61,753 bases of DNA from Escherichia phage vB_EcoS_SA126VB: sequence record OL960573.1, one strand, 5' to 3'. The notes under the pieces are model-generated. The model saw only the letters and a list, made by a program, of their open reading frames with translations. It did no database searches and was not told the origin of the DNA. Of the stretch, positions 27,048-59,973 are shown in pieces (position 1 is the first letter of the stretch; every line of letters begins with the position of its first letter). A program made the position numbers and the translations under genes.

Positions 27048-29033
27048 TTAGGCGTATCCCATGTCTTCGAGATACTTCTCTGCTTTAGCTATATAAGCAT
27101 CATAATCTATGTCGTCCGGTATTTTATCCGGTAGCGTCATGATTGGGACACCTCCCGCGCTACCAGCTACACGGTTGCCCGAGTTAGCATAGATTATTTC
27201 GGGAGTTTCTTCATTGGTGCTTAAATACCAGCGTACAACCTTACCCAAAAATTCGCCATTCCATACCGCGCCGCCTTTTACTGCACGTAGGATAATGAAT
27301 TTTCTAATATCGTTGCAATTGCGTATAGTACGAGAAACAGGCGTACCGTGGGCCAAACATTCACATACAGCTTCCATAATAATTTCACCAGTACAGTTCT
27401 TTTGAAGCCCTGTTTTCGCGAACCAGCCTTTACGTTTAATTTCAACATTTCCTTCCTCATCAGGTTCTTTTACTGCAACATAGTTGTTGACGTTAGCACT
27501 GTACAGCTTGTCATAGTAGTTGGATTCCATTTTAAAACCTGTTACGGATTCCCACCACTTAATCATGTTATCAACGAAATCCTGCATGTGGTCAGGGTAC
27601 TTAACCACAATGCCATCCGTGTTAGCTGAAATTACTTTAACACCGTTCAGCTCAAACGCTTCAATAAGCATTAACAGAGATAGCTGTCCTGTGATAGTTA
27701 CCTGTATCAACAATTGCGGCGCGTACAATACAGACCACATTGAACCCAATTTACCGAACGATCCGTTGATTACGATCTTCAGCGTGTTGGCTGTGTTCTT
27801 GTCTCCTGAGTGCTTAGCCGCAATACGACGGTCTACAATGCTTTTATAAACACGAAGGAACGCTGGTCCCAACTGCTCAGGGTATAAGCCCTGATTAAGA
27901 ATAATTGAAGGGTAATAGGACGTTACGTCAATGTCTCGCTTCTTAATACCTGGCTCTTTACCGTGACCAGCACATTCTTCAGAGCTGTGTAGCCCACCGA
28001 TACCCATACGGTAGACACCGTCCGCAATCTTGATCTCCAGACCTGTTAAGGCTGGGGGCAAGCTAATGCCACCGTTATCGCTAACAACAAAGCGGCAGTC
28101 GCGAACAATATCCAAAACACTATTCATCAGAGGTGTTTGAAAACGAATAAAGTCCGGTATGTTATACGCATACTTTGTTCCAGGATAAACTTGGGGACGC
28201 TGCGGACGCACACCAGTTAACGCTTGAATTTCGTGTTTAATTACGTCTTCTGCAATCTGCGCATCAGAACGTGAACGCAGATCCACACCGTATTCTTGCG
28301 ACATAATTTCACGAAGATGTAAAGGTTCCTGTAATGCAATAAAACATTCTTCCGTCTGTACAAGGTCGTTAATACAGTACCAGCGTACAATAAGCATCTG
28401 GTCCTGCGTCAACATTGTATTTGGCTTGAACGGTAAATCCTGCATACGGCGAGTATGTACACGTCCGCCATATTGTTTCAAACCACCAGATCCAGGCAGA
28501 ACTTCCATAATATCAATGTGGTTAACGTTCTGCATACGCTTGAGACGGTAACTTTTCAATACATCCGAAGGACGCCAATCTTCAACGATTATCTTATCGG
28601 TTGCGTCTTTAAGCTGCGCATTAGAACAGCCGTTAAGCGCAAGCGTAGCAATGGTCATATCGTAACCGTTACCGTTAAAGCTCACGATAAGGAAGTTTGT
28701 CATTACCCAGTTAAGTAGCAAGCAATTCAAACTACAACCGTGATACATTTCGAAGTAGACAACTTTCTTAGTCCTTACTCCGCGGAATGCGATCAAGAAG
28801 TAGTTTGAATAACATTCAATATCATATACAAGCGGTTCGCGGTTAATCCATGCTTGAATAAGTTCATCCTGTGTGTACAGGTTGTATTGGAAGTTCCGCG
28901 CTTCCTCAAGATTAGGCAAATAATCCGGGCGCTCCCAAGTGCGCTCCGGCGGTAAACGTTTAACTTTTTCTTTCTTTGCTTTTGGCTCAGGCGGTAAGTC
29001 CTGCCAAAAGAAACCAATAGCATCTGTCCGCAT
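27048..29033 (-). CDS. DNA polymerase, family B (compact, with 3'-5' exonuclease motifs)
   Basis: Exo motifs YDIECYS, FNGNGYD, YCINDL; polymerase motifs DVTSYYPSII (A), KIVINGSFGK (B), SANTDGIVV (C); ATG 29033 overlaps upstream stop (TAATG), GGAGAA RBS; track start 29087 is TTG. Confidence 0.75.
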   Translation of the reverse strand: MRTDAIGFFWQDLPPEPKAKKEKVKRLPPERTWERPDYLPNLEEARNFQYNLYTQDELIQAWINREPLVYDIECYSNYFLIAFRGVRTKKVVYFEMYHGCSLNCLLLNWVMTNFLIVSFNGNGYDMTIATLALNGCSNAQLKDATDKIIVEDWRPSDVLKSYRLKRMQNVNHIDIMEVLPGSGGLKQYGGRVHTRRMQDLPFKPNTMLTQDQMLIVRWYCINDLVQTEECFIALQEPLHLREIMSQEYGVDLRSRSDAQIAEDVIKHEIQALTGVRPQRPQVYPGTKYAYNIPDFIRFQTPLMNSVLDIVRDCRFVVSDNGGISLPPALTGLEIKIADGVYRMGIGGLHSSEECAGHGKEPGIKKRDIDVTSYYPSIILNQGLYPEQLGPAFLRVYKSIVDRRIAAKHSGDKNTANTLKIVINGSFGKLGSMWSVLYAPQLLIQVTITGQLSLLMLIEAFELNGVKVISANTDGIVVKYPDHMQDFVDNMIKWWESVTGFKMESNYYDKLYSANVNNYVAVKEPDEEGNVEIKRKGWFAKTGLQKNCTGEIIMEAVCECLAHGTPVSRTIRNCNDIRKFIILRAVKGGAVWNGEFLGKVVRWYLSTNEETPEIIYANSGNRVAGSAGGVPIMTLPDKIPDDIDYDAYIAKAEKYLEDMGYA

Positions 29034-29986
29034 TAGACACGTTCTCCAATTAATACACCGCGAAGATTGTCCCCAAAGAATGCGCAAGGTTGCGGATATA
29101 AACTAAAGTCCGCAGTCTTAACCACATTTTCAAGCAATAACAGGATATCAATATTGTACACTCCCGTTATTGTTCGGTCCTGTAATACGAAGCTTGCACC
29201 TTCCGCATCATCATAGTGAGTACGGGCTAGACCGTTTTCAATATATACACGCGGTCGGTCTTCTGCGAACGGTTTAATTTTATGCAAGCCCTCAAAAAGA
29301 CCTGGATCAACAGGATGTGCATTGCATTGAACATTTAAAATACGACGTATATCGGGCCACTCCGCATCAATAAGCTGTGTTCGCAACCAGCGACCTTCCG
29401 GATAATGAAACGTTACATTGTTCTTACTAACCTGAATATGTGTCGGGTTAGCTTTAATGCGAAGTATTTCTTTAATAGCAACAGACGGTATTATGCAGTC
29501 AATAGGGAATTGATTACCAAACCAATATTCCGCAATGGTGACGTTATTTGTAGCAAACAGGCTACCGTTATTAATCAGAATACCGCAAGCCCACGGGCGG
29601 GACGCATCCGAGCCTACAAACGGAGCAACAGACTTCACACCGTGTACGAAGCGAGCACCGTCTATTTCGTATAAATCACCTTCAGGGAATACGTGAGGCG
29701 TTTCCTTGTCAATGCAGCGTATAGCAACACGAAACGGTCCGGACTTAATATTAAGTTTACCGTTAGCCATCATTGTTAACTGTACGGTTTCGTCACAGTT
29801 TGAAATAGCTTTAATCATAGGCCCAGCTTCAGGCTTGCAATCAATATCCAGCTCAATAGGGCTACCCAGTGCAATAACACCGTTAAAGCCCTGTACCTGT
29901 CCATCACGGATAAGAAAGCTGGTAAGCCCTTCTACCAGTTCCTTTTTAGCGACGGACCCTTGAACAAATTTAAGAGCGTCTAACAT
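29033..29986 (-). CDS. beta sliding clamp-like protein (DnaN-like)
   Basis: 317 aa; LIDAEWPDIRRILNV closely resembles the DnaN segment LVDGRFPDYRRVLP (recalled from memory); translationally coupled to polymerase. Confidence 0.5.
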   Translation of the reverse strand: MLDALKFVQGSVAKKELVEGLTSFLIRDGQVQGFNGVIALGSPIELDIDCKPEAGPMIKAISNCDETVQLTMMANGKLNIKSGPFRVAIRCIDKETPHVFPEGDLYEIDGARFVHGVKSVAPFVGSDASRPWACGILINNGSLFATNNVTIAEYWFGNQFPIDCIIPSVAIKEILRIKANPTHIQVSKNNVTFHYPEGRWLRTQLIDAEWPDIRRILNVQCNAHPVDPGLFEGLHKIKPFAEDRPRVYIENGLARTHYDDAEGASFVLQDRTITGVYNIDILLLLENVVKTADFSLYPQPCAFFGDNLRGVLIGERV

Positions 29987-30213
29987 TAGCGATCCTCGAT
30001 TGCTCTAATTGTGGTTAAATCTAATTCGCAGGTTGGAGGGTATCCATAAAGTTCCATTTGTTTTCCTTGTGCATTAAACCATGTACCTGATGGATCCTGC
30101 CACTGCTTAGGTGTCTTGTGGAGAAATACTACTCTGTTTTCACCATAATAATTAATTCTTACTCCTGTGTGAGTATATTTACGTTTACCTTTTGGTCTTC
30201 TTAAGTTAGCCAT
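29986..30213 (-). CDS. hypothetical small protein
   Basis: 75 aa, Lys/Arg-rich N-terminus; start and stop both overlap neighbours. Confidence 0.4.
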   Translation of the reverse strand: MANLRRPKGKRKYTHTGVRINYYGENRVVFLHKTPKQWQDPSGTWFNAQGKQMELYGYPPTCELDLTTIRAIEDR

Positions 30214-31133
30214 CAGAACAACTCCATTACACGATCACGGAATGTGCCGTCATGGGTGGCGTTAATGTTTGCAGCAATTACACCATACGCCCATAAGTTG
30301 AAGGCAGCACGTGATTCATAGATTGTTGATAAACGTTCGTAAGTGAAACCGTTTTGCTCAAGGTATTTAAGGACAGCGTCTTGTTCGATTTCAGTTAATG
30401 TTGAAACATGCTTACCAAAATGATGGCGGTCCGGTGACTTATCTGATACGCGCATTGGTCCCCACGGAGGGGTAACCACACTTCCAAACGCTGCCGCTTG
30501 AATCCAGGAGGATGAGTCGCAGCTATACCACGGATAACGTTCCATGATGGTTGTTGACGTAATACCAAACGCATGAAGTTTAATCTTAGCACGTCCGCTA
30601 CCGTCGCAAATATATTTGTCCCACATGCGGTCAAGCCAAGTCTTAAGCGTGTCCGTGGAACGCCCTACCATGCCCCCGATGGTGATATATTCGTAGTTCT
30701 TCATGTAGTATTCAAGATAGCGGAAGTCTTCACCAAAGTGAAAGCAAGGTAACGGTTTAGCACCGCGTGCTTCCATTTCAAGCTGGTTACGGTAGGTTTG
30801 CAACGGGTCACCGATACCATCGAGTACCGACGCCATTACCGCACCATCTTCAACGCGAAGGATGTCTTTGTTGCGCTTAATGTATTCGCAGTATTCAACA
30901 ATATCAATGTGAGCACCTAAAGAATGTGCAGAGAATGCACCGGAGTCGAGAAATACTTTAGCCCCGTCCGCACGCATCTGATCAACATACTTTTGACGCC
31001 CAACGTAGTGATATGATTCCAAAATATGGGGCAGATTGCGCGTGATATTTTTCTCATGCTCAGACAGCTTTTCATAACGCTGCTGGCCAGGCATATATCC
31101 GTTCGTGTAAACTGCTGCCATAAAAACGTTCAT
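30213..31133 (-). CDS. dpdA: DpdA-like tRNA-guanine-transglycosylase-family protein (predicted DNA 7-deazaguanine transglycosylase)
   Basis: 306 aa; FLDSGAFS matches the TGT catalytic DSGGFQ region; no CxCxxC..H zinc motif; sits beside folE/queD/queC/queE. Confidence 0.65.
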   Translation of the reverse strand: MNVFMAAVYTNGYMPGQQRYEKLSEHEKNITRNLPHILESYHYVGRQKYVDQMRADGAKVFLDSGAFSAHSLGAHIDIVEYCEYIKRNKDILRVEDGAVMASVLDGIGDPLQTYRNQLEMEARGAKPLPCFHFGEDFRYLEYYMKNYEYITIGGMVGRSTDTLKTWLDRMWDKYICDGSGRAKIKLHAFGITSTTIMERYPWYSCDSSSWIQAAAFGSVVTPPWGPMRVSDKSPDRHHFGKHVSTLTEIEQDAVLKYLEQNGFTYERLSTIYESRAAFNLWAYGVIAANINATHDGTFRDRVMELF

Positions 31134-31336
31134 TTTTGGAACGGCCCTCCAAACTGATCAATTAGTTCTAAAGTACGCCACGTTTCATTAAATGCTTCGT
31201 CCGCTCGATGTTTAGCGTCAATAAGCTGCTGCTTTAAAACATCTGTAGGCGCATCATTCTGTACTGCAGAGCAAGCATCTGCAGTACCTGCTTTAAGCTG
31301 GTAGAATGCTGTCTCTAAGATTAGTTGTCTTGACAT
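31130..31336 (-). CDS. hypothetical small protein
   Basis: ATG 31336 preceded by GGAGGA; track start 31363 lies inside the folE terminator hairpin. Confidence 0.35.
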   Translation of the reverse strand: MSRQLILETAFYQLKAGTADACSAVQNDAPTDVLKQQLIDAKHRADEAFNETWRTLELIDQFGGPFQK

Positions 31337-31352
31337 ATTTCCTCCAATGACT

Positions 31353-31389
31353 AAAAAGCCCATACCAGTATTATGACCGATATGGGCTT
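31353..31389 (-). terminator. rho-independent terminator after folE
   Basis: AAGCCCATA ... TATGGGCTT 9-bp stem followed on the minus strand by UUUUUAG. Confidence 0.55.
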
Positions 31390-31407
31390 GATCTGTAAAG
31401 CTATCTA

Positions 31408-32055
31408 TTATTTACAAGCTTCGAGGAACTCCCGGCGCCAATATGCACCCATATCGGTTCCCCCCAGCCCCGCGCGTGCGGTGCATCCGCGGAATGCTTT
31501 GGTAATAGTAGAGCTGCCGCATACCTGCTTAACACCGCGCGACTCCATGCACATATGCTTGGCGTCAATATAAACACATACAGCTTTCGGGTTTAAATGC
31601 TCCTGAATAGCGTCAGCAATCTGGTTAGTTAGACGCTCTTGCACTTGCAAGCGACGGCTAAAAGCATCAACCACGCGAGACAGTTTACTGAGCCCCACGA
31701 TGCGACCGTTAGGAACATACCCCACGACAGCGCGACCGATAATAGGGGCCATATGGTGTTCACAATGACTGTAAACAGGAATATCACGAACAATGACCAT
31801 TTCATTGGTGTTTTCCGCCCCATCCTCAAAGGTTTTAAACAGACCAGCAATATCTACATCGTAACCGCTAAACCATGTGGCATAAGCTTTAGCGACACGG
31901 TCTGGAGTCTCTGCTAATCCTGGACGTAATTCAATGCAATCTTCAATCTGAGTTAGTAAAGTATGCACCGCGCGAGCAATACGGAATTGAGTACCTTCAT
32001 TATCAATAGTAAATTTTGGCATGGTTTGCAGTTTCCTTGTTGTTAATGTGGTCAT
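31408..32055 (-). CDS. folE: GTP cyclohydrolase I
   Basis: 215 aa; [30 protein letters not shown] contains the FolE CEHH signature. Confidence 0.85.
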
Positions 32056-32057
32056 AC

Positions 32058-32549
32058 TTACAGACTATAGTTTACGTGACATTTCGAAGTTTCTTCGATG
32101 GTGCATTCTACAAGTTGAACACCATGTTCGTCAAGTAGTTGCGGTCCAATTACTTCAACCATATATGCAGCTAGGTTTTCGGCGGTAGGGTTGAACGGTA
32201 AAGATACCAGCGAGTTGTCAAAGTCCCTTACATCGTGACCCGTAGCTTCGTCACAAAGTTCAAGATCAACCTGAAGAGCTTTAATCAAAGGATCTTCTTC
32301 CCAGTGTAGGAATTTATGATCCCAATTATCTTCCAACCACTGGCAGAGCGTAGTTTTAACCACACTAAAATCGATAACTCGCCCAACGTCGTCCAGCAAA
32401 ATACTATTGATTTCTTGCGACCCTTTTTTCGGTGCAACCTTAAAGTGAAACTTATAGTTGTGACCATGAAGGTGACGACACTTACTTTCATGACCCACAA
32501 CACGGTGACCAGCGCAAATTTCATGTGAACGAATTACTGTATAACTCAT
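32058..32549 (-). CDS. queD: 6-carboxy-5,6,7,8-tetrahydropterin synthase
   Basis: 163 aa; CRHLHGHNY (CxxxHGH zinc motif); AGAGGT RBS. Confidence 0.85.
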
Positions 32550-33136
32550 TTTAATACCTCTTTAGACTGTTCAATTTCTAACGCACGTTGCGCCGACGCA
32601 ATAATGTCTTTCAGATCTTCTACCAGATTCTTATGACCGCGTTCGCCCGGCTGCAACGCCTTTTTAATCAAATGTTGTAAAGCTGGGTTAGTTGTGTTCC
32701 AAGCTTCCAAGACATCATAGACGTCCACGATGCATTTTACAACATTGCCGTTTTGATCTTTACCATAAATAACTTTCTGATATTTATTCATGGGAATTTT
32801 AGATGGTTCGTATTTCGTAAAAACTGCACCATTAAATGTATTACTTATGCTTATTCCAGAAGAAGGTTGATGGTACAATCCGGAGCGAGTGTTTTCGCTG
32901 GCTTGGTTGACGTAATCTTCCGCAACAATATATCGCCAGGCTATGATATCTTGAACTTTATAAGGGCTATTTTCATCCATAGCTGAACGCCCTTCCATAG
33001 CCCAATCCCATCCATGTAATAGATTCTTAACGTGTGTGCCGTTGCGCAAACGAACTTCAAACTTCTCATTACGAAGAAAAATAGGCATTCCTTTACCGTC
33101 GTGTAGGTGCCAAATTTTATTCAAATTATCTTTCAT
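32546..33136 (-). CDS. hypothetical protein embedded in 7-deazaguanine cluster
   Basis: 196 aa from ATG 33136 (stop of upstream gene 2 nt away); no recognisable QueF/ArcS/amidotransferase motif. Confidence 0.5.
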   Translation of the reverse strand: MKDNLNKIWHLHDGKGMPIFLRNEKFEVRLRNGTHVKNLLHGWDWAMEGRSAMDENSPYKVQDIIAWRYIVAEDYVNQASENTRSGLYHQPSSGISISNTFNGAVFTKYEPSKIPMNKYQKVIYGKDQNGNVVKCIVDVYDVLEAWNTTNPALQHLIKKALQPGERGHKNLVEDLKDIIASAQRALEIEQSKEVLK

Positions 33137-33138
33137 TT

Positions 33139-33618
33139 TTACGCTCTCGCTGTACGTGAATGAACTTCGTAAACAACCCAAAGGATAGCAGACGCTGTGA
33201 ACTTACTTAAGCTCATTGCTACCATCGATCCCGGATTAACAATACCTATAATACTTAAGAACACAATGGAGTCAATCGGTACAGCTACCAAAGAGCTGAT
33301 AAATACTCGTTGATGGAAAGGCTTCTTGGTGACCGTGTATACTACATAGTCCGCAAACTCACTAAGCGCAAAAGACGCAACGGATGCAACTACAACCGCA
33401 GGATCACCGAACACCCAGCTAAGAATGCAACCAACAATCATTGCAGGGATGACGCCTTTGCCAGCGTTACGCTGTGCGTAATCACGCAGAACAAAGATAA
33501 TGCCTACAAAGAAAGCCATCATGGGGACTACGCCAAGTGGCGTATTAAGCATCGGAAGGTAGGAAAAGCCCAGGTTTACGAATGTAATTGCAGCCAGATA
33601 AGCAACGATAAATTTCAT
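33139..33618 (-). CDS. putative queuosine-precursor (preQ0/preQ1) transporter, YhhQ/DUF165-like membrane protein
   Basis: 159 aa, 4-5 hydrophobic helices; loose resemblance to YhhQ; adjacent to queC; GGAGAA RBS. Confidence 0.4.
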   Translation of the reverse strand: MKFIVAYLAAITFVNLGFSYLPMLNTPLGVVPMMAFFVGIIFVLRDYAQRNAGKGVIPAMIVGCILSWVFGDPAVVVASVASFALSEFADYVVYTVTKKPFHQRVFISSLVAVPIDSIVFLSIIGIVNPGSMVAMSLSKFTASAILWVVYEVHSRTARA

Positions 33619-33738
33619 ACTTTTGTTCTCCAGTTTTAACAGCGCTATTCGCTGGTTGTTGGGTTTAAAAGCTTTAGTAGTATAGTTGGGTTACCGCACC
33701 CTAAACAATGCGCTAGCGGTGCGGTTTTCGCGGTAAGA

Positions 33739-34461
33739 TCAAATGTGTTTGCTGTAAGCCTTATCCATAAATTCGCTATAGCCTTTAGCGCGAAGTTTAC
33801 ACGCCGGGCATTCCCCGCAACCGTATCCCCAGTCATGCAGAGTACGACGGACGCCATTATAGCACGTATGGGACTGCTCAATTACTGTGGTTAAGAAACC
33901 AACCTTATCCGCCAGCTCAAACGTTTCTGCTTTATTTAAACGCATAAGCGGTGTAACAAAATGGATATCAGTTTCATATCCAACGTTTAATGTAGCTTCA
34001 AGAAGATCAACAAACTGCTGGCGGCAATCCGGATAACCGCTATAGTCTGTTTCACAAACGCCTGTAACCACATATCGAGCACCAACTTTCTGCGCGTAAG
34101 CGTGCGCGGTAGTAAGGAAAAGAGCATTACGGTTTGGCACAAAGCTTGCCGGAAGGTTGTTGTGCTGTTCGTGATGTTCGTTAACATCACCTTCGTCCCC
34201 GATTAAAGCGCTATTCCCAATCTGTTTCAAAGCAGGTAATTCAAAGACAACAAATGGGACATCGTGCTCTTTACAAATTTGATTAGCACAAGCCAGCTCA
34301 ATGTTATGACGTTGACCGTATGCAAAACCAATAGCGTAGACCTTATCATAGTTATTAAGGGCAAGGCCCAAACAGGTTACGCTGTCCTGGCCGCCAGACA
34401 GGACGACAACGGCGGAGTTATGATTTTTTACAGGGAATACCAGTTTATCTAATTTATTCAT
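33739..34461 (-). CDS. queC: 7-cyano-7-deazaguanine (preQ0) synthase
   Basis: 240 aa; PP-loop VVLSGGQDS; C-terminal Cys cluster CYNGV...CGECPAC; no fused amidotransferase domain. Confidence 0.85.
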   Translation of the reverse strand: MNKLDKLVFPVKNHNSAVVVLSGGQDSVTCLGLALNNYDKVYAIGFAYGQRHNIELACANQICKEHDVPFVVFELPALKQIGNSALIGDEGDVNEHHEQHNNLPASFVPNRNALFLTTAHAYAQKVGARYVVTGVCETDYSGYPDCRQQFVDLLEATLNVGYETDIHFVTPLMRLNKAETFELADKVGFLTTVIEQSHTCYNGVRRTLHDWGYGCGECPACKLRAKGYSEFMDKAYSKHI

Positions 34462-34462
34462 T

Positions 34463-34651
34463 TTAGAAACCTTTAAGGCTAATATTAAGGTTAACGACTA
34501 CTTGTTCAACTACATCTTCAGAGGCCATCTGACGCTTATGAATTTCAAGCTCCGAGTATATTTTCTTGGATGCAGCACGACAAATAGCGTCATTTAACTC
34601 GTCCTGTAAACGTTGAATCTTTTGCATAAGAATTACAGTCTCTTCATTCAT
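34463..34651 (-). CDS. hypothetical small protein
   Basis: 62 aa between queC and queE, ATG start. Confidence 0.4.
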   Translation of the reverse strand: MNEETVILMQKIQRLQDELNDAICRAASKKIYSELEIHKRQMASEDVVEQVVVNLNISLKGF

Positions 34652-34856
34652 CTACTTCACCTTTAATATCACAAGGGTTGATTGTTACGTTAGACATTAC
34701 AATTGGATGATTACGCGCTCCAATTGTACTAACGTAATTAATATCTAATTCTACATGCACGCCCTGCATAGTAGCGTGAGCAATCGAAGAATTAAGTTTT
34801 TCTACCAGCTCAGTAATCATTTCCTGATGCTGTTTCGCTTCTTCCAAAGTGATCAT
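34644..34856 (-). CDS. hypothetical small protein
   Basis: 70 aa between queC and queE; stop overlaps queE start region. Confidence 0.4.
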   Translation of the reverse strand: MITLEEAKQHQEMITELVEKLNSSIAHATMQGVHVELDINYVSTIGARNHPIVMSNVTINPCDIKGEVDE

Positions 34857-35563
34857 TATTCCACCCCGATATATTTGTGAACCTGAAGCTGCAACGTGTA
34901 ACCGTGTTTCATACAGCTTTGGACAACGGCTTGGATGTTACTGTGGTTAAGGTTTTCATCCTGCTCGTCCATTGGCTGTAAATATATCTTACCCTTGAAC
35001 CCCTTCGGAGGTCTAGCGATAAATGGCGTAGCTTGATGATCTAATGCTTGAAAAGGTAAACCATCTACCACGTTTACACAGCACGCTTTAAGTACATATT
35101 TAAATGCATTAGCGCGGTACAGCACAGAAGGGTGAATCTTTGAGGTTTTGGGGCTACATACAATCACAGGTAACTGGGAAAAGTTCTTAGGTAAAGGCAT
35201 AGACCCATTAGTCTCAATTTGCACCAAATACCCGCGCGATAACAGTTGTTCGACAAACGGGTTAATTTGCTGGCGGAATGGTTCACCCCCAGTAATAACC
35301 ACAAGTGATGTGCTATTGCCTGATTCCAGCTTACGGCTTTCGATTAAACGCATAATATCGACAATATGATAAAGACTACGACCAACAGTATAATCCGTAT
35401 CACAGCCAGGACATTGCAGGTTGCACCCAGCAAGACGCACAAATACAGCAGGTTGGCCGCAAAATGGACCTTCACCCTGAATGGTAGAGAATACCGAATG
35501 CACGTCTAAATACATATCGTTTTCTTTAGAACGGGACTCGGGAGCTTGTTGATTAATATTCAT
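34856..35563 (-). CDS. queE: 7-carboxy-7-deazaguanine synthase (radical SAM)
   Basis: 235 aa; RLAGCNLQCPGCDTDY (CX3CX2C radical-SAM motif); AGAGGA RBS. Confidence 0.8.
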   Translation of the reverse strand: MNINQQAPESRSKENDMYLDVHSVFSTIQGEGPFCGQPAVFVRLAGCNLQCPGCDTDYTVGRSLYHIVDIMRLIESRKLESGNSTSLVVITGGEPFRQQINPFVEQLLSRGYLVQIETNGSMPLPKNFSQLPVIVCSPKTSKIHPSVLYRANAFKYVLKACCVNVVDGLPFQALDHQATPFIARPPKGFKGKIYLQPMDEQDENLNHSNIQAVVQSCMKHGYTLQLQVHKYIGVE

Positions 35564-35576
35564 CTTAAATCCTCTA

Positions 35577-35606
35577 GTGAAAAAGAAAGCGCCTCATTGG
35601 GCGCTT
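35577..35606 (-). terminator. rho-independent terminator upstream of queE
   Basis: AAAGCGCC-tcatt-GGCGCTTT followed on the minus strand by UUCUUUUUC. Confidence 0.55.
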
Positions 35607-35632
35607 TCATTATAACGTGATATGTTTTGATA

Positions 35633-36436
35633 TTACAAGCCGTTCAGGGCTTCCGGTACTGGCATAGGCACGCGACCAGTTATACCATTGAACTTCTTCC
35701 AACGTGCATACTGAGTTTTAACAGTATCTTCGTTCAGACCGTGACGACCTGCCAGATTCAGGACATAAGAGATCGGAGCAGGCTGACCCAGTGTAGCGCT
35801 AATCTGATCCATCAGAGCCCAGGCACGACCGCAGGAAGTTTCAGGTTGCGGACGACGAACACCATTCTGTTCCGGCATACGGTTCGCTTCTTTCGCTTTC
35901 ACACGTTCAGCTTTTTCGCGGGCTTTTTCAGCAGCCTTTTCAGCCTGTTTAGCAGCGCGGATCTTGTCTTTGAAGCTTTTAATAGACGAATCCAGTTCGT
36001 CAACCATGCTCTGAGCAGCAGTTACTGCACCGGACAGATCTTCGCCTTTGGATTTTTTAACAACTGCTTTCAGCTCTTTCAGAGCATTCTTTAAATGCTT
36101 CAGCTGTTCAGAACCCTTAGATTCTGCTTCCGTAATCTGTTCAACAGTGCTTTCATCGGTAATACCGGATAAAGCAAACTTCACGGTTTCAACTGCCTGG
36201 GAAAGAGCGGTAAATTTATTTTCCGCTTCAGTACGGATTTCAGCTTGTTTCTTTTCAGCGGCAGCTTTTTTCTCTGCTTCTTTTTTCTCTTTTGCTACGC
36301 GTGCAGCTTCAGCGGCAGCGGCTTTTTTAGCTTCTGCGTCGTTAGCAGTAGCTTCTTTCTTTGCAGGCTTAGCAGATTTTGCAGCGGCAGCAGCGGCTGC
36401 GGCAGCAGCGGCTTTCTTATCTTCAATATTACTCAT
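35633..36436 (-). CDS. Ala/Lys-rich protein with basic low-complexity N-terminus
   Basis: ATG 36436 with GGAG RBS (track start is GTG); N-terminal AAAAAAAAAAAKSAKPAKKE...; globular C-terminus. Confidence 0.5.
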   Translation of the reverse strand: MSNIEDKKAAAAAAAAAAAKSAKPAKKEATANDAEAKKAAAAEAARVAKEKKEAEKKAAAEKKQAEIRTEAENKFTALSQAVETVKFALSGITDESTVEQITEAESKGSEQLKHLKNALKELKAVVKKSKGEDLSGAVTAAQSMVDELDSSIKSFKDKIRAAKQAEKAAEKAREKAERVKAKEANRMPEQNGVRRPQPETSCGRAWALMDQISATLGQPAPISYVLNLAGRHGLNEDTVKTQYARWKKFNGITGRVPMPVPEALNGL

Positions 36437-36563
36437 TTTCTTCACTCCGAATTATTATGGGTTCGTTTGTTACCAACGGGGTTAAATGTACCAAAGGATT
36501 TTGTGACACGCAACCACTTACATAAACATTTTTAAAAATATTTTTGATCAGGGTTAGAACTTA

Positions 36564-37058
36564 TTAGCTCTTCGCACCTCTGCCCGGTGTCCATGCTGCT
36601 TGCAATGCGGGTTGCTCACAAATGACCCGGGCACCGGAAATAATACTACCCTCCCGTTCAGCATCGTATTTGACACGGGCAGGTTTCCAAAGTCCTTCAT
36701 CCATTGACGGAACGTATTGCCCAATTTGAGGTGAGCAAAAGCCTTGGATATCGTATTCCACACAGAATTCGGCTTGTGCGCTAATTTGGGCGTGATCCAG
36801 GATTGTTTCTGGAAGTTGCGTAAAGTAATCAAACAAAATGCGCTCAACGATTTCCCGTTCATATGGTGCAGCTCCTAAGTTTTCTGTCAGGTTAATATAA
36901 AGCATTTGAAGATCAACATCTTCAAGATCTTTTAAATCGTTTACTGGTGTTACCAGTGTTGACTCCGGACAACAGATAATTCCAAGTTGGTGTAGTGTCA
37001 ACCAATTGGGATGTTTTGCCAAGAGTTCAAATTTATCTGTATCAATTAGGACGTACAT
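36564..37058 (-). CDS. hypothetical protein
   Basis: 164-aa ORF with ATG start. Confidence 0.5.
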   Translation of the reverse strand: MYVLIDTDKFELLAKHPNWLTLHQLGIICCPESTLVTPVNDLKDLEDVDLQMLYINLTENLGAAPYEREIVERILFDYFTQLPETILDHAQISAQAEFCVEYDIQGFCSPQIGQYVPSMDEGLWKPARVKYDAEREGSIISGARVICEQPALQAAWTPGRGAKS

Positions 37059-40069: not shown

Positions 40070-40936
40070 TTACTGCTGCCACGGCGGGACTGCTGCTTGT
40101 GCCGGATGCGGTTCAGCTTGCTGCTGCGGCTGAGCTTGCTGCTGAGGTGCTGCTGCCTGGCCAGGCTGTGCTACCTGCTGCGCCCACGGCTGCTGAGCTG
40201 CTTCCGGTGCTACTGGCTGTTGTACCGGAGCTTGCTGCACTGGCTGCTGCGGTGCTGCATTTTGAGCAGGGTTATCCCACGGTTGCGGTGCTGCATTCTG
40301 CCACGGTTGAGCTGCTGCGCCCTGCTGCGGTGCTGGTTGCTGAACAGGCTGCTGAACTGGCTGCGGTTGCTGTACAGGCGCTTGCTGTTGCTGAGCAAAC
40401 GGGTTAGCCGCTGGTTGCTGCGGTGCTGCGCCCGGGAAAGCTGGCTGCTGTGCTGGCGCACCTGCACCGAACGGGTTAGCTACTGCTGCTTGAGCACCCA
40501 TTGCTGGAACACCTGCTTCTTTTTCTGCATACTTAACCGGATCGTTGATGTTAGCATAACCGTTAGGTTCGTTGCTGTCTTCATAACCTTCCTGAGAACG
40601 AACTTTCAGACGCAGGTTCAGCGGAATGTTATGCAGTTGAGCAGGAGTATCCCAGCGGATTACGCCTACAGCATGGGAAAGAGCGCCCAGTTGCTCGTAA
40701 GCAATACGCACAGTATCTTCGTTGTCGTTGATAACGTTGTAACGAGCAAAGATTTTACGACCTTTAGCAAAACCATCAATGATGCTAAACGTTACCTGGA
40801 TCGCCATACCGCCATTTTTGGTCGGTTTAAATTCAGATGTTTCAATTACTGCTTTATACCAACCTTTCGGCAATGCGCCGTAAGAAGGTGCTTGATAGCT
40901 GCTCGCGTCAAAGTGGAAATTAGTTGGCATAGTCAT
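40070..40936 (-). CDS. putative ssDNA-binding protein with long Gln/Pro/Ala-rich C-terminal tail
   Basis: Globular N-terminal ~130 aa then ~150 aa of PVQQP/AAPQQP repeats; position between RecA-like ATPase and exonuclease. Confidence 0.4.
   Translation of the reverse strand: MTMPTNFHFDASSYQAPSYGALPKGWYKAVIETSEFKPTKNGGMAIQVTFSIIDGFAKGRKIFARYNVINDNEDTVRIAYEQLGALSHAVGVIRWDTPAQLHNIPLNLRLKVRSQEGYEDSNEPNGYANINDPVKYAEKEAGVPAMGAQAAVANPFGAGAPAQQPAFPGAAPQQPAANPFAQQQQAPVQQPQPVQQPVQQPAPQQGAAAQPWQNAAPQPWDNPAQNAAPQQPVQQAPVQQPVAPEAAQQPWAQQVAQPGQAAAPQQQAQPQQQAEPHPAQAAVPPWQQ
40080..40500. repeat. low-complexity CAGCAGCC/GCTGCTG-type coding repeat (encodes the Q/P/A tail)
   Basis: Reiterated cagcagcc/ctgctg units visible directly; generates long spurious antisense ORFs. 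Confidence 0.8.
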
Positions 40937-41729: not shown

Positions 41730-42644
41730 TTAATCTAAAGCCTGATCAGTTTCATCGCGGAAATGCATAAAGTTTGCAAAACGCGGTTTATCTTTCACGC
41801 CATGAGGGAAGTGTTTATATGAAATAGTCCGACCTTTAATTTTGTCAGGGTTATTCCAATAATAAATCTTATCCTCTTGCGTTAGTTTACCAGGACTAAC
41901 GTTGATTGTATTGCCCGTCTTAACGTCTTTACAAACCAACGTCCCGATCATACCGTTAGGAACTTTATTTTCCTGATGCGAAGATCGTGTAGTCCTGCCC
42001 AGCTCGTTAACAGTAGCTTCATTAAGGTTAGTTTCACCCTCAATAATATCAAGGACAATAGCATCTTCCTGAATAAAGCGTTTAATACGAAGATATCCAC
42101 CTTCACGAACTGTGCCGCGCCCATGTTTATAAGGCTTGTCAGGATCGCGGATAATAATACCTTCATAACCAATATCAAGCCAGATGTTTTCCCAGTAGAG
42201 CAGCTCTTGTAAAGACTTAACCACATACATTGGGACAACTTGCAGGTCGAGCAATTCGCCTTTAGCGTGCTGTGTGGTTATAAAGTCTTTCATCATGTTG
42301 TAGCGTGCTTCATAGCCCAGCTCTGCAACACTTTCCGCGCACAGATCAAAGATGTGCCATTTCAGGAACGGTTCACCTTCAATTGTGTTTACCGCACTGG
42401 TTGTTTTACGGCACAGATCTGGATCTGTTTCTACACCTGCTGCGAGCTCGCCGTCATAGCCCATGTACTGGGGACCGCTGAAAATTGCGCTTGTATGGCG
42501 GTTTTTAAACAGCTTTAAGCTTCGCCCTACTATCTGCCCGTCCGGATTTAAACCGCGCACACCGTCGATTTTAGGCAGTATGCAGCACGGAAATTTAATC
42601 TTTTCTTCAACCGCGTCAGTCGCTAAATGTGGTTTAAAAGTCAT
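41730..42644 (-). CDS. ATP-dependent DNA ligase
   Basis: 304 aa; adenylation motif I KIDGVRG. Confidence 0.75.
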   Translation of the reverse strand: MTFKPHLATDAVEEKIKFPCCILPKIDGVRGLNPDGQIVGRSLKLFKNRHTSAIFSGPQYMGYDGELAAGVETDPDLCRKTTSAVNTIEGEPFLKWHIFDLCAESVAELGYEARYNMMKDFITTQHAKGELLDLQVVPMYVVKSLQELLYWENIWLDIGYEGIIIRDPDKPYKHGRGTVREGGYLRIKRFIQEDAIVLDIIEGETNLNEATVNELGRTTRSSHQENKVPNGMIGTLVCKDVKTGNTINVSPGKLTQEDKIYYWNNPDKIKGRTISYKHFPHGVKDKPRFANFMHFRDETDQALD

Positions 42645-43147
42645 AGAGGTCTTTCACTCCCGTGGTTTTGGTTAAAGTTATAGTCACGTTCTGCTTGTTT
42701 TCGAATACGAACAGCTTCATTGAAATTTTCAAAATATCCAAGAAATTTTTCTTTTCTGTTAATCCGTATATAAGCTCTCCATTTACCTCTCTTTTTGCAC
42801 CAAAGCACTCCAACTTGACCGCTTTTGTTATTAGCTGGTTTGCGCCTATTACACGCATTAACTTGATGCGTAACAGATTTTAAATTTGTGCGACGGTTAT
42901 TTAACCCATTTCCGTCATCATGATCAATTTCTTCAGGTTCTTCATCATAGAGCATTTTCCAGATTATACGATGTGCTTTATATAATACTCCATCAATACG
43001 CAATACTAGATAGCTTTTACCATCCGGTTGCGTTACAACAGTACCCGCAGGTTCCATTGTTTCATAACGAATTAAAATACCTGTCTCTTCGCAATAATAG
43101 AATAAACTGTCTAAAATGTCTTTATCTGGTGTTCCTCGTATATGCAT
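42641..43147 (-). CDS. HNH homing endonuclease (HNH_3 plus AP2-like domain)
   Basis: IDHDDGNGLNNRRTNLKSV HNH core, AP2-like KSGQVGVLW..GKWRAYI; ATG 43147 with GGAGGTGA RBS (track start is TTG). Confidence 0.7.
   Translation of the reverse strand: MHIRGTPDKDILDSLFYYCEETGILIRYETMEPAGTVVTQPDGKSYLVLRIDGVLYKAHRIIWKMLYDEEPEEIDHDDGNGLNNRRTNLKSVTHQVNACNRRKPANNKSGQVGVLWCKKRGKWRAYIRINRKEKFLGYFENFNEAVRIRKQAERDYNFNQNHGSERPL
42935..42976. repeat. 42-bp exact repeat, copy 1 (inside HNH gene)
   Basis: aggttcttcatcatagagcattttccagattatacgatgtgc is identical at 47482-47523; encodes AHRIIWKMLYDEEP on the minus strand. Confidence 0.9.
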
Positions 43148-43152
43148 AAATA

Positions 43153-43656
43153 TCACCTCCAATAATATTTACTCTTTATTTGTTGAATAAGCTCTTTACA
43201 TTGAAGGATCCTAATCTTGCTTCTCTCAAGTCTCATTGCGTGCCGAGCTCTTTGATCGCAAAATCTTTGGGCTTTACTACGCTGGTCCTGATTAGCTGTA
43301 TGACCTTTAACGTGGCGGAACTCAATAGTAAGATTATATTTACGCAATTGATCGTTCAACCATTTGAAAGCTACACCTTCCTGTTCACTTTTCCAGCTCG
43401 CTTCTTTATACACTTTAATAGCTGTTGAACAGTCTGTTTGCACAATTAAATGATCACCTGGATGGATTAATTTAGCCTTCATTCCCTCCCAAATAACATT
43501 ACAGATTGCCATTGTTTCAGCTGCATTATTATCAGGAGCTCCACGTAACGGTCCACCGTTAGCGTTATTTCCACGGTTGCACACTACCCAGCCACCGTAT
43601 CCAGCGGCTTTTGTATTTGGACAAAAACTTGCATCAGATATAATTGTTACTCGCAT
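43153..43656 (-). CDS. ribonuclease H
   Basis: 167 aa; RNase H-like DASF..E..D..H pattern (SDASFCPN, AAETMAI, VQTDCSTAI, VKGHTAN). Confidence 0.6.
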   Translation of the reverse strand: MRVTIISDASFCPNTKAAGYGGWVVCNRGNNANGGPLRGAPDNNAAETMAICNVIWEGMKAKLIHPGDHLIVQTDCSTAIKVYKEASWKSEQEGVAFKWLNDQLRKYNLTIEFRHVKGHTANQDQRSKAQRFCDQRARHAMRLERSKIRILQCKELIQQIKSKYYWR

Positions 43657-47086: not shown

Positions 47087-47404
47087 TCAATTTTGCGCGG
47101 TTCCCTTTGCCGCTTTTGGTGCTAAAGTACCATCATTTAACATCAACTCAAAACCTGTTACTTGATCGGTTGGAACAATAGGGTAATTCATGATAGCCAT
47201 GTGGATACAACCCCCTCCATCACATTCGTCGATGTATTCACTACCCCAATAGTATAAATGACCATCTCTTCGAATATCCATTGCTGTAGGGAAATCTACA
47301 AGAATTCTTTTGATTTCTTTTCGTCCTTCTTTATGCAGATTAGTTTCAATACGGATAAGCTCCGCATAAATTGCTTCACAGATAGTGTTTACAATACTCA
47401 TCAT
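47087..47404 (-). CDS. hypothetical protein
   Basis: 105-aa ORF with ATG start. Confidence 0.45.
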   Translation of the reverse strand: MMSIVNTICEAIYAELIRIETNLHKEGRKEIKRILVDFPTAMDIRRDGHLYYWGSEYIDECDGGGCIHMAIMNYPIVPTDQVTGFELMLNDGTLAPKAAKGTAQN

Positions 47405-47748
47405 TTACCCCTTAAGTTTTGAATCATTCTATCACAGGCAGCTTTTACAGAAGAATTTTGCCAGTCTTCCTCAATTTGTGAAGGTTCTTCATCATAGAGC
47501 ATTTTCCAGATTATACGATGTGCCAGATAATGAAGACCGTCTAGACCAACAAGAATATAAACGTTTCGGTCTTTAACAACAGCGCGACCAGCTTCTTTTC
47601 CTGCGAACTGAGAGTTGAATTTGGAACAAGCTCTTTGTGTTTTAAAGAACTTTAAAGGCGCTTTCTTCCATCTTAAAATGCCAGTCTCTTCATTATACTC
47701 AAAACGATCATGCAAATAGTCAAATGAAGGTAAAGGTCTAAATTTCAT
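47401..47748 (-). CDS. truncated, degenerate HNH-endonuclease-like paralog (possibly non-functional)
   Basis: Shares YNEETGIL and AHRIIWKMLYDEEP with the 42641 HNH gene; catalytic IDHxDGN replaced by IEEDWQN; no AP2 domain; ATG 47748 with weak RBS. Confidence 0.4.
   Translation of the reverse strand: MKFRPLPSFDYLHDRFEYNEETGILRWKKAPLKFFKTQRACSKFNSQFAGKEAGRAVVKDRNVYILVGLDGLHYLAHRIIWKMLYDEEPSQIEEDWQNSSVKAACDRMIQNLRGK
47482..47523. repeat. 42-bp exact repeat, copy 2
   Basis: Identical to 42935-42976. Confidence 0.9.
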
Positions 47749-47989
47749 AATATTACCTATAACCAATAAAAGAACCAGAAATAACCAGCTACGAAAATAG
47801 CACCCGCAAATAATTTTAAAAGTTCGAACATTGTTCCCTCCGTTAACTTTATGCTGTAAGTATAGCAGGACTTGCGATGTATGCAACAACTTTAGACTTG
47901 AAATACATCTATAAAATAGCACGATTTGCCTTTACCTTTGATCCGTCTAGCTGTACTATTAACTCATAAACAGAGCGGAGGATTACAAA

Positions 47990-59019: not shown

Positions 59020-59480
59020 CCACAATTGCGTTTGATGGAAAAGTATTAGCTGCGGACCGTGGAGTTATGCGCGGGGAAGCTGTGACTGCTTATAAGAAAG
59101 TTCATAGCGTGAATGGACATCGTGGACGGTTTCTACTGGGCTTGTGCGGCCTTACAGCATTTACCGATCAGGTGTTGCGTTATTTTAATAGCGCGGAACC
59201 TGTTAAGTTCCCTGATATTAAACTTTACAGTAAAGATGATGATTACGGGCAAACTTGCGGTCTTGCTGTCACTCCGGAAGGTACTTGCCATTTTATTTAT
59301 AATGATGGTACTTTGAGCGAGCCCATGCTGGATGGATGGGGATCTGAGGGTAGCGGTTGTGTGTTTGCTGCTGGGGCGTTAGCTGCTGGTGCAAGTGCGA
59401 GCGAAGCTATTGAGTTGGCAATTAAACACACCACCTGCGCATTCCTGGGAGTTGATACAATATCATTTGAGGGTTTTTAA
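59016..59480 (+). CDS. HslV/proteasome-beta-like Ntn-hydrolase fold protein
   Basis: N-terminal MTTIAFDGK (Thr at position 2 after Met removal, as in HslV TTIV); Gly-rich GSEGSGCVFAAGALAAG segment. Confidence 0.4.
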   Translation: MTTIAFDGKVLAADRGVMRGEAVTAYKKVHSVNGHRGRFLLGLCGLTAFTDQVLRYFNSAEPVKFPDIKLYSKDDDYGQTCGLAVTPEGTCHFIYNDGTLSEPMLDGWGSEGSGCVFAAGALAAGASASEAIELAIKHTTCAFLGVDTISFEGF

Positions 59481-59481
59481 A

Positions 59482-59973
59482 ATGGAATGGTCTTCCATAT
59501 TTACTTATTTGGATGGAAAGCTGTTCTGGAAAACTTCTAGAGGTGGTAGAGTTATACCAGGAGCACTTGCTGGTCATGCTACAAAGAGGGGTTACGTTAA
59601 AATACGATGCGGTTGTAGTTTCTATCTAAGGCATCGCATAGTATGGGAAATGCATAATGGTTCCATTCCCGAAAATATGCAAATAGATCATATTAATCAC
59701 GTTCCTGGAGATGACAGGATAGAGAATCTTAGATTAGTTACAAGTACATTAAATAATAGGAACGTAACCAGATCTAAGCTTAATAAGTCTGGTGTTACTG
59801 GTGTTTGCTATCACAAAAGAAATAAAAGATGGATAGCTTATATTAATACACAGGTTGGTCAAGTAAGACTTGGCTCTTTTATTAATTTTGAAGATGCTGT
59901 CAATGCTCGTAAAAATGCTGAGATTGTATATGAATACCACGAGAATCACGGAACTGAACGTAAGAGTTTTTGA
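59482..59973 (+). CDS. HNH homing endonuclease (HNH_3 plus AP2-like domain)
   Basis: IDHINHVPGDDRIENLRLVT HNH core; AP2-like KSGVTGVCYHKRNKRWIAYI; ATG 59482 right after previous stop. Confidence 0.7.
   Translation: MEWSSIFTYLDGKLFWKTSRGGRVIPGALAGHATKRGYVKIRCGCSFYLRHRIVWEMHNGSIPENMQIDHINHVPGDDRIENLRLVTSTLNNRNVTRSKLNKSGVTGVCYHKRNKRWIAYINTQVGQVRLGSFINFEDAVNARKNAEIVYEYHENHGTERKSF

Follow-up and report, generated by a model that had tools for sequence, protein, structure and literature searches.

Which pathway is encoded by the eleven tightly packed open reading frames (ORFs) at positions 29986-35563 on the minus strand of Escherichia phage vB_EcoS_SA126VB (OL960573.1), and does its product end up in the phage DNA? 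In the window, by which we mean the whole stretch of 61,753 nucleotides (nt) that was analyzed, the limits of this region are gene ends, all eleven ORFs are intact, and they are transcribed in the order QueE, orf70, orf62, QueC, YhhQ-like, orf196, QueD, FolE, orf77, DpdA, and orf75. We conclude with high confidence that these ORFs constitute a Seuratvirus module for 7-deazaguanine modification of DNA, yielding dPreQ0, the deoxynucleoside of 7-cyano-7-deazaguanine (preQ0), at GA and GGC sequences and blocking restriction. The gene identities, motifs, synteny, lack of downstream modifiers, and DpdA identity come from the present analysis, whereas the chemistry, genetics, modification motifs, and restriction protection come from published work on phage CAjan, from which we infer that the window phage behaves alike. 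The cluster is a textbook example of a system described before and is in that sense already known, and the novelty assigned to it in a preliminary description, made from the sequence without database searches, was too high, dPreQ0 being a published defining trait of Seuratvirus (PMC8594841).

Four of the genes encode the enzymes of preQ0 synthesis. FolE (31408-32055), a GTP cyclohydrolase I, matches PF01227 at E 6.4e-63 (211.8 bits, cutoff 27) and passes the TIGR00063 cutoff (191.6 bits, over 181.6), with the Zn-binding and catalytic CEHH motif at C98. QueC (33739-34461), a stand-alone 7-cyano-7-deazaguanine synthase, matches PF06508 at E 7.4e-75 (251.5 bits) and TIGR00364 at 242.4 bits against a cutoff of 150.3; its PP-loop is S22-GGQDS, and its C-terminal Zn-binding cysteine cluster consists of Cys200, Cys215, Cys218, and Cys221 (C215-x2-C218-x2-C221). 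QueD (32058-32549), the 6-carboxytetrahydropterin synthase, belongs to the PTPS family (PF01242, E 1.9e-24, 86.4 bits, cutoff 22.4), matches the 'QueD-like' phrog_2389 at E 4.5e-57, and carries the CxxxHGH active-site and Zn-binding motif as C24-RHL-HGH. QueE (34856-35563), the radical-SAM 7-carboxy-7-deazaguanine synthase, has Pfam Radical_SAM and Fer4_12 matches and the CX3CX2C [4Fe-4S] motif as C47-NLQ-C51-PG-C54, and its five best NCBIfam matches, with E values from 1e-27 to 2e-20, are all QueE models (TIGR04322 at 1.3e-27, TIGR04508 at 1e-26, TIGR03963, TIGR03365, and TIGR04349), well ahead of other radical-SAM enzymes. Each motif cited in the preliminary description was thus located and its four family assignments hold, well beyond what chance would give, but its statement that the four genes are consecutive does not: only FolE and QueD are neighbors, with orf196 and the YhhQ-like gene lying between QueD and QueC, and orf62 and orf70 between QueC and QueE. 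Its inventory was right as to the four enzymes but lacked the YhhQ-like putative transporter.

The gene for the enzyme that would carry preQ0 into DNA, DpdA (30213-31133), encodes a phage DpdA1-type DNA guanine transglycosylase that is identical to CAjan DpdA at 306 of 306 amino acids (aa) and matches phrog_887 at E 8.2e-96. Nine active-site residues have been proposed for CAjan DpdA, with Asp206 as the nucleophile and Asp63 as the base, and a homology model has been published (PMC7544227); all nine (D63, S64, F67, D105, H132, G153, G154, F189, and D206) are kept in the window and are invariant across 28 homologs. G217 is likewise invariant in that alignment, and a 2025 preprint describes a host glycosylase, Dag1, that attacks dPreQ0-containing DNA in a phage of E. 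coli, with G217E in DpdA as the escape mutation. Membership in DpdA rests on the 100% identity to the CAjan protein, which by sequence places the window gene in the phage DpdA1 subfamily and not with bacterial DpdA.

In CAjan the modification has been characterized both chemically and genetically. Analysis by liquid chromatography-tandem mass spectrometry (LC-MS/MS) found dPreQ0 at 70,628 per 10^6 nt, ~32% of G, and deletion of dpdA left no dPreQ0 and a fully restrictable DNA (PMC6884629). Nanopore sequencing combined with LC-MS placed the modification at GA and GGC, and deletions of folE, queC, or dpdA each abolished the nanopore signal above the cutoff and made the DNA restriction-sensitive; in the queC deletion, LC-MS/MS still found dPreQ0, lowered 12-fold and derived from host preQ0 (PMC7544227). 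With yhhQ deleted, the DNA was still modified (PMC7544227). On CAjan virion DNA, EcoRV and HaeIII are blocked. dPreQ0 has been shown in the virion DNA of both CAjan and HK243, and the BASEL study describes it as a signature of Seuratvirus, whose members resist type I and type II restriction-modification (RM) systems in vivo and are sensitive to type III (PMC8594841).

Taken together with the gene content of the window, these results outline a pathway in which FolE would convert GTP to dihydroneopterin triphosphate, QueD would make 6-carboxytetrahydropterin, radical-SAM QueE would make 7-carboxy-7-deazaguanine, and QueC, with ATP and ammonia, would form the nitrile preQ0, so that the four enzymes would synthesize preQ0 from GTP during infection. 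The YhhQ-like membrane protein, dispensable in CAjan, may import additional preQ0. The TGT (tRNA-guanine transglycosylase)-like DpdA, whose gene forms one tightly overlapping string with those of the polymerase subunits, would then excise guanine after replication and insert preQ0 at GA and GGC, with Asp206 as the nucleophile and Asp63 as the base. The expected outcome is dPreQ0 at roughly one-fourth to one-third of guanines, a level that would protect the DNA from many type I and type II restriction enzymes with GA or GGC in their sites.

Whether the pathway ends at dPreQ0 depends on what else the phage encodes, and this was addressed by a Pfam scan of 98 ORFs across the window, each 45 aa or longer and none overlapping another, with those outside the cluster concatenated. 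In these 98 ORFs no QueF, ArcS, PUA, GATase, or methyl- or formyltransferase domain was found, in agreement with the preliminary description, which had recognized no QueF, ArcS, or amidotransferase-fused QueC. The lone QueF match, under the cutoff, is FolE itself, a cross-match to be expected within the T-fold. The 240-aa QueC has no N-terminal amidotransferase: of the 476 positions in the profile of phrog_10428, a Gat-fused family, its alignment spans 248-458 only, which is the C-terminal QueC half. With no downstream modifier and a stand-alone QueC, the predicted base is dPreQ0, and since the DpdA is identical to that of CAjan, the same product and motifs are the default expectation. GA and GGC contexts account for 28.4% of the G in the window, which agrees with measured modification levels of 23-32%. 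By analogy with CAjan, the virion DNA of the window phage is therefore predicted to be dPreQ0-modified. The earlier prediction of dPreQ0 with restriction resistance is thus supported, and has been shown experimentally in CAjan, but the accompanying idea that guanine is replaced wholesale is not, the replacement being partial and specific to GA and GGC.

The best surviving alternative, although we consider it quite improbable, is that the final base is something other than dPreQ0, with one of orf196, orf62, orf70, orf75, or orf77 converting preQ0 or dPreQ0 to 2'-deoxy-7-amido-7-deazaguanosine (dADG) or another derivative. Five ORFs of the cluster have no assignable function, orf196 is the one most divergent from its CAjan counterpart, and traces of dADG have been reported for some phages that carry dPreQ0 (PMC6884629), all of which leave some room for such a step. 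However, a dPreQ0 level of 23-32% of G already covers essentially all GA and GGC sites, and CAjan, in which dPreQ0 alone was found, has orthologs of all five ORFs. None of them shows a detectable relation to any enzyme family in Pfam or NCBIfam, including the amidotransferase, nitrile hydratase/DpdC, QueF, and methyltransferase families. Many phages carry the C-terminal module of orf196, and many Seuratviruses have no orf77. In addition, comparison of the CAjan annotation with the deletion coordinates given in Table 1 of PMC7544227 suggests, although its authors do not say so, that the 550-bp 'yhhQ' deletion of CAjan extends into the orf196 ortholog (31513-32082): it starts at 31850 and would thus take away the 5' end of that gene as well, and it left modification unchanged. 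A milder role for these ORFs, in which at least one of orf75, orf77, orf62, orf70, and orf196 is an unrecognized accessory or pathway factor of the dPreQ0 module, is also unlikely, though less so. Such a factor might tune the GA/GGC specificity of DpdA, couple DpdA to the polymerase, or counter host glycosylases that target dPreQ0 DNA, and the mosaic FolE-QueD-orf196 segment discussed below could reflect selection on an accessory interaction.

A second alternative, which we regard as very improbable, is that these genes serve tRNA, boosting the supply of queuosine precursor while the transglycosylase modifies tRNA. It draws on the PHROG and GenBank labels of the DpdA homolog, 'queuine/queuosine tRNA-ribosyltransferase', but the identical CAjan enzyme is required for dPreQ0 in DNA (PMC6884629), so that for CAjan the tRNA explanation is already refuted. 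In the window itself, no tRNA gene was found, the Pfam scan recovered no QueF or other enzyme known to act after preQ0, DpdA has no Pfam TGT or PUA match, and dpdA is located among polymerase genes.

Several observations weigh against assigning this locus to the CAjan system as firmly as we do. While FolE and QueC pass their curated cutoffs, QueD and QueE reach their families without reaching the equivalog cutoffs: QueD scores 68.3 bits against 89.25 for TIGR03367, relative to which it has an insertion of ~40 aa, and QueE is under the cutoff of all five of its models, with 96.7 bits against 200 for TIGR04322. No curated profile recognizes DpdA, which gives no match to Pfam TGT or PUA and only 16.9 bits for the bacterial DpdA model NF041059 (cutoff 200), and neither phmmer nor a profile hmmsearch found a match among PDB sequences. 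An AlphaFold2 (AF2) model of DpdA, built from a shallow alignment of 28 close homologs, is poor (predicted local distance difference test (pLDDT) 58, predicted template modeling score (pTM) 0.56), and a Foldseek search of the PDB with it returned only generic TIM barrels at E > 0.02, a bacterial TGT ranking tenth (E 0.1). A wider set of DpdA homologs runs to 2,811 sequences. The match to the characterized cluster is also incomplete, FolE, QueD, and orf196 being 78%, 76%, and 56% identical to their CAjan counterparts, and a small ORF that lies between QueD and orf196 in CAjan (108 aa) and VogelGryff (89 aa) is absent from the window. Finally, the deletions described in CAjan cover folE, queC, dpdA, and yhhQ, leaving queD and queE intact, and the chemistry that we bring to the window phage by analogy was done on relatives. 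In spite of their scores, QueD and QueE are to be seen as divergent phage versions of these enzymes and not as doubtful ones.

The lower identities to CAjan are confined to one part of the module. The YhhQ-like protein, like DpdA, is identical to its CAjan counterpart (159 of 159 aa), and the identities of the others are high: QueE 97.9%, QueC 97.5%, orf75 98.7%, orf70 95%, orf77 92%, and orf62 90%. The three divergent proteins are closer to those of VogelGryff (FolE 90%, QueD 89%, orf196 84%). This pattern implies, as far as the sequences go, that the FolE-QueD-orf196 block (31408-33136) has a history distinct from that of its flanks (30213-31133 and 33139-35563), with recombination within the module. 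At the QueD/orf196 junction, ~32546-32552, the blastn alignment jumps across the site of the absent small ORF. That the cluster might be present yet inactive or decaying, for which this mosaic segment and the absent small ORF could be cited, is scarcely credible given eleven intact ORFs, a full set of catalytic motifs, tight gene overlaps that imply co-translation, and variant FolE and QueD proteins 89-90% identical to those of VogelGryff, a described dPreQ0 phage that resists most RM systems.

Among the remaining genes of the module, the YhhQ-like gene (33139-33618) encodes a hydrophobic membrane protein that is a putative preQ0 or queuosine-precursor transporter. It matches PF02592 (Vut_1) at E 2.2e-5 with 25.3 bits, just under the cutoff of 27.2, and TIGR00697 at E 1e-4 with 22.2 bits, under the cutoff of 50.95, and its identical CAjan counterpart is annotated as a preQ0 transporter. 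The adjacent orf196 (32546-33136), of unassigned function, had been listed as a 211-aa ORF from a TTG codon; its start is most likely the ATG at 33136, giving 196 aa, because phrog_23361 aligns from residue 16 of the longer ORF and all orthologs begin there. It is a three-part protein, with an N-terminal domain of ~70 aa that is conserved within the genus, a hypervariable and indel-rich middle, and a C-terminal module of ~55 aa (VDVYDVL.AW...NPALQHLIKKALQPGERGHK) that recurs at 75-78% identity in many unrelated phage and prophage proteins with differing N-termini. No match to orf196 was found in Pfam (E up to 10), NCBIfam, or the PDB, and its AF2 model is poor (pLDDT 62, pTM 0.33), with meaningless Foldseek matches. 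A resemblance of the C-terminal module to DUF3310 found no support from any tool and was rejected.

The small orf62 (34463-34651) and orf70 (34644-34856), both of unassigned function, match phrog_24420 (E 2.2e-44) and phrog_26258 (E 2.2e-50), respectively. There is no Pfam match for orf62, and orf70 has no NCBIfam match and an unrelated best Pfam match at E 0.095. The two are identical at 9 of 26 positions (E 4e-4 in a single comparison), and by sequence they may be tandem paralogs. The label 'radical SAM domain-containing' that orf70 bears in the CAjan record and in PHROGs is unsupported by NCBIfam or Pfam, and as this 70-aa protein has a single cysteine, a radical-SAM cysteine triad is impossible. 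At the other end of the module, orf77 (31130-31363), small and of unassigned function, overlaps the start of DpdA by 4 nt and matches phrog_20065 at E 8.6e-40. It was found in only 21 phage records, comprising a subset of Seuratvirus and Enterobacter phage EC151, and its absence from many Seuratviruses indicates that it is not core to the pathway. The small orf75 (29986-30213) has one-base overlaps with the DpdA stop and with the start of the polymerase beta-subunit gene, and it matches phrog_38388 (E 9.5e-57, no annotated function), with no match in Pfam or NCBIfam. In a tblastn search orf75 was found in 35 phage records, 33 of them Seuratvirus-type at identities of at least 95%, together with one Salmonella phage, STP-SP5 (79%), and one Hafnia phage, yong3 (31%), and there is no Nonagvirus (9g-type) record among the 25 matches listed. 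On this distribution, orf75 looks limited to Seuratvirus-like phages, and neither orf75 nor orf77 looks like a core pathway component.

Downstream of orf75 on the same strand lie two genes annotated in relatives as the DNA polymerase beta-subunit (29033-29986) and the DNA polymerase (27048-29087). Neither has a Pfam match at E <= 0.001, and the two look like divergent polymerase genes, translationally coupled to orf75, DpdA, and orf77; the earlier placement of a DpdA-like gene beside replication genes is borne out. At the opposite boundary, a pattern scan located a terminator-like GC-rich hairpin at 35585-35608 on the minus strand (9-bp stem with 6 GC pairs, then TTTTTC), within the 69-bp gap between QueE and an Ala/Lys-rich gene, and a promoter-like site directly upstream of the hairpin at 35638-35609, with a 10/12 match. 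The gene beyond this gap (35633-36445, minus strand) encodes a low-complexity Ala/Lys/Glu-rich protein of 270 aa with 11 consecutive Ala, labeled 'FtrA domain' in CAjan.

The CAjan cluster (NC_028776) has the same gene order, strand, and adjoining polymerase genes as the window, a stand-alone QueC, and no QueF, and its nucleotide identity to the window cluster is 91.4% over 89% coverage. Other Seuratvirus phages, namely VogelGryff/Bas25, KurtStettler, SLUR75, Dru_SM1, SA80RD, KS_W4, and Seurat, match 94-99% of the cluster at nucleotide identities of 92-95% and share the genome architecture of the window, and the cluster is syntenic with those of CAjan and VogelGryff. The BASEL records annotate the corresponding genes as DpdA and 'dPreQ0 synthase QueC'. 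Altogether 54 phage records match in a nucleotide search with the cluster. In 32 of these the coverage of the region is 80% or more and the identity 91-95%, and these 32 belong to phages of the Seuratvirus type, among them CAjan, Seurat, VogelGryff, KurtStettler, and the SLUR phages. Phage 9g, of the sister genus Nonagvirus, shares the core FolE, QueD, QueE, and DpdA1, with a FolE-QueD segment that is ~75% identical at the nucleotide level, but it has a Gat-QueC amidotransferase fusion and makes dG+ (archaeosine) (PMC6884629); as the QueC of the window lacks the Gat domain, its pathway should stop at dPreQ0. The bacterial Dpd RM system (DpdA/DpdB/DpdC; PMC10164549) likewise inserts preQ0 through a TGT-like DpdA, although the window cluster is without a helicase- or ATPase-type domain, and the Pfam scan of the window found no GATase or known preQ0-modifying family that could supply a DpdC-like step, no DpdB or DpdC profile having been searched specifically. 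The two systems also differ in modification level, which is ~30% of G in phages and under 0.1% in bacteria (PMC10516641).

By genome-wide similarity and synteny the window belongs to Seuratvirus (subfamily Queuovirinae). Each third of it, aligned separately, matches complete Seuratvirus genomes at 91-97% nucleotide identity over 74-94%, and the coincidence of its termini with those of Seuratvirus records identifies it as a complete genome, which at 61.7 kb is at the upper size limit for the genus. Some 35 deposited phages are related to the whole window at 91-97% nucleotide identity. The best-matching record for each third gives 97.2% over 86%, 94.9% over 93%, and 94.4% over 76%, and no record in the collection has at least 95% identity with full coverage of the whole window, which makes the window phage a distinct strain within the genus and possibly a distinct species. 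No DNA methyltransferase was detected anywhere in the genome, and the 7-deazaguanine module is its sole recognizable DNA-modification system. At gathering thresholds, Rfam found no families in the whole window, the preQ1 riboswitch included, and within 29500-36600 it gave chance-level matches only (E 0.23 or worse). Elsewhere in the genome there are two intact HNH_3 endonuclease genes, at 42641-43162 (minus strand) and 59389-59973 (plus strand), and a third HNH_3 homolog at ~47401-47780 (minus strand) that has a 'AHRIIWKMLYDEEP' stretch, is without the HNH motif, and ends early, and is probably a decayed homing endonuclease. At 40070-40936 (minus strand) lies the gene for a low-complexity DUF669 protein whose C-terminal tail is long and rich in Gln, Pro, and Ala.

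The pathway, the inserted base, its sequence motifs, the genetics, and the protection from restriction have all been published for a phage with an identical DpdA, and the window gene is correctly annotated as 'DpdA, DNA transglycosylase' rather than 'queuine tRNA-ribosyltransferase'. In practical terms, the virion DNA should resist enzymes such as EcoRV and HaeIII, for which the window has 16 and 64 sites, respectively, whereas SspI, with 34 sites, and AanI/PsiI, with 38, should cut it, and its modification may degrade nanopore basecalls. For the biology of the phage, the module predicts resistance to type I and type II RM systems, while type III systems and glycosylases specific for 7-deazaguanine, such as Dag1, should remain effective, and the trait is the one that underlies the name of the subfamily Queuovirinae.

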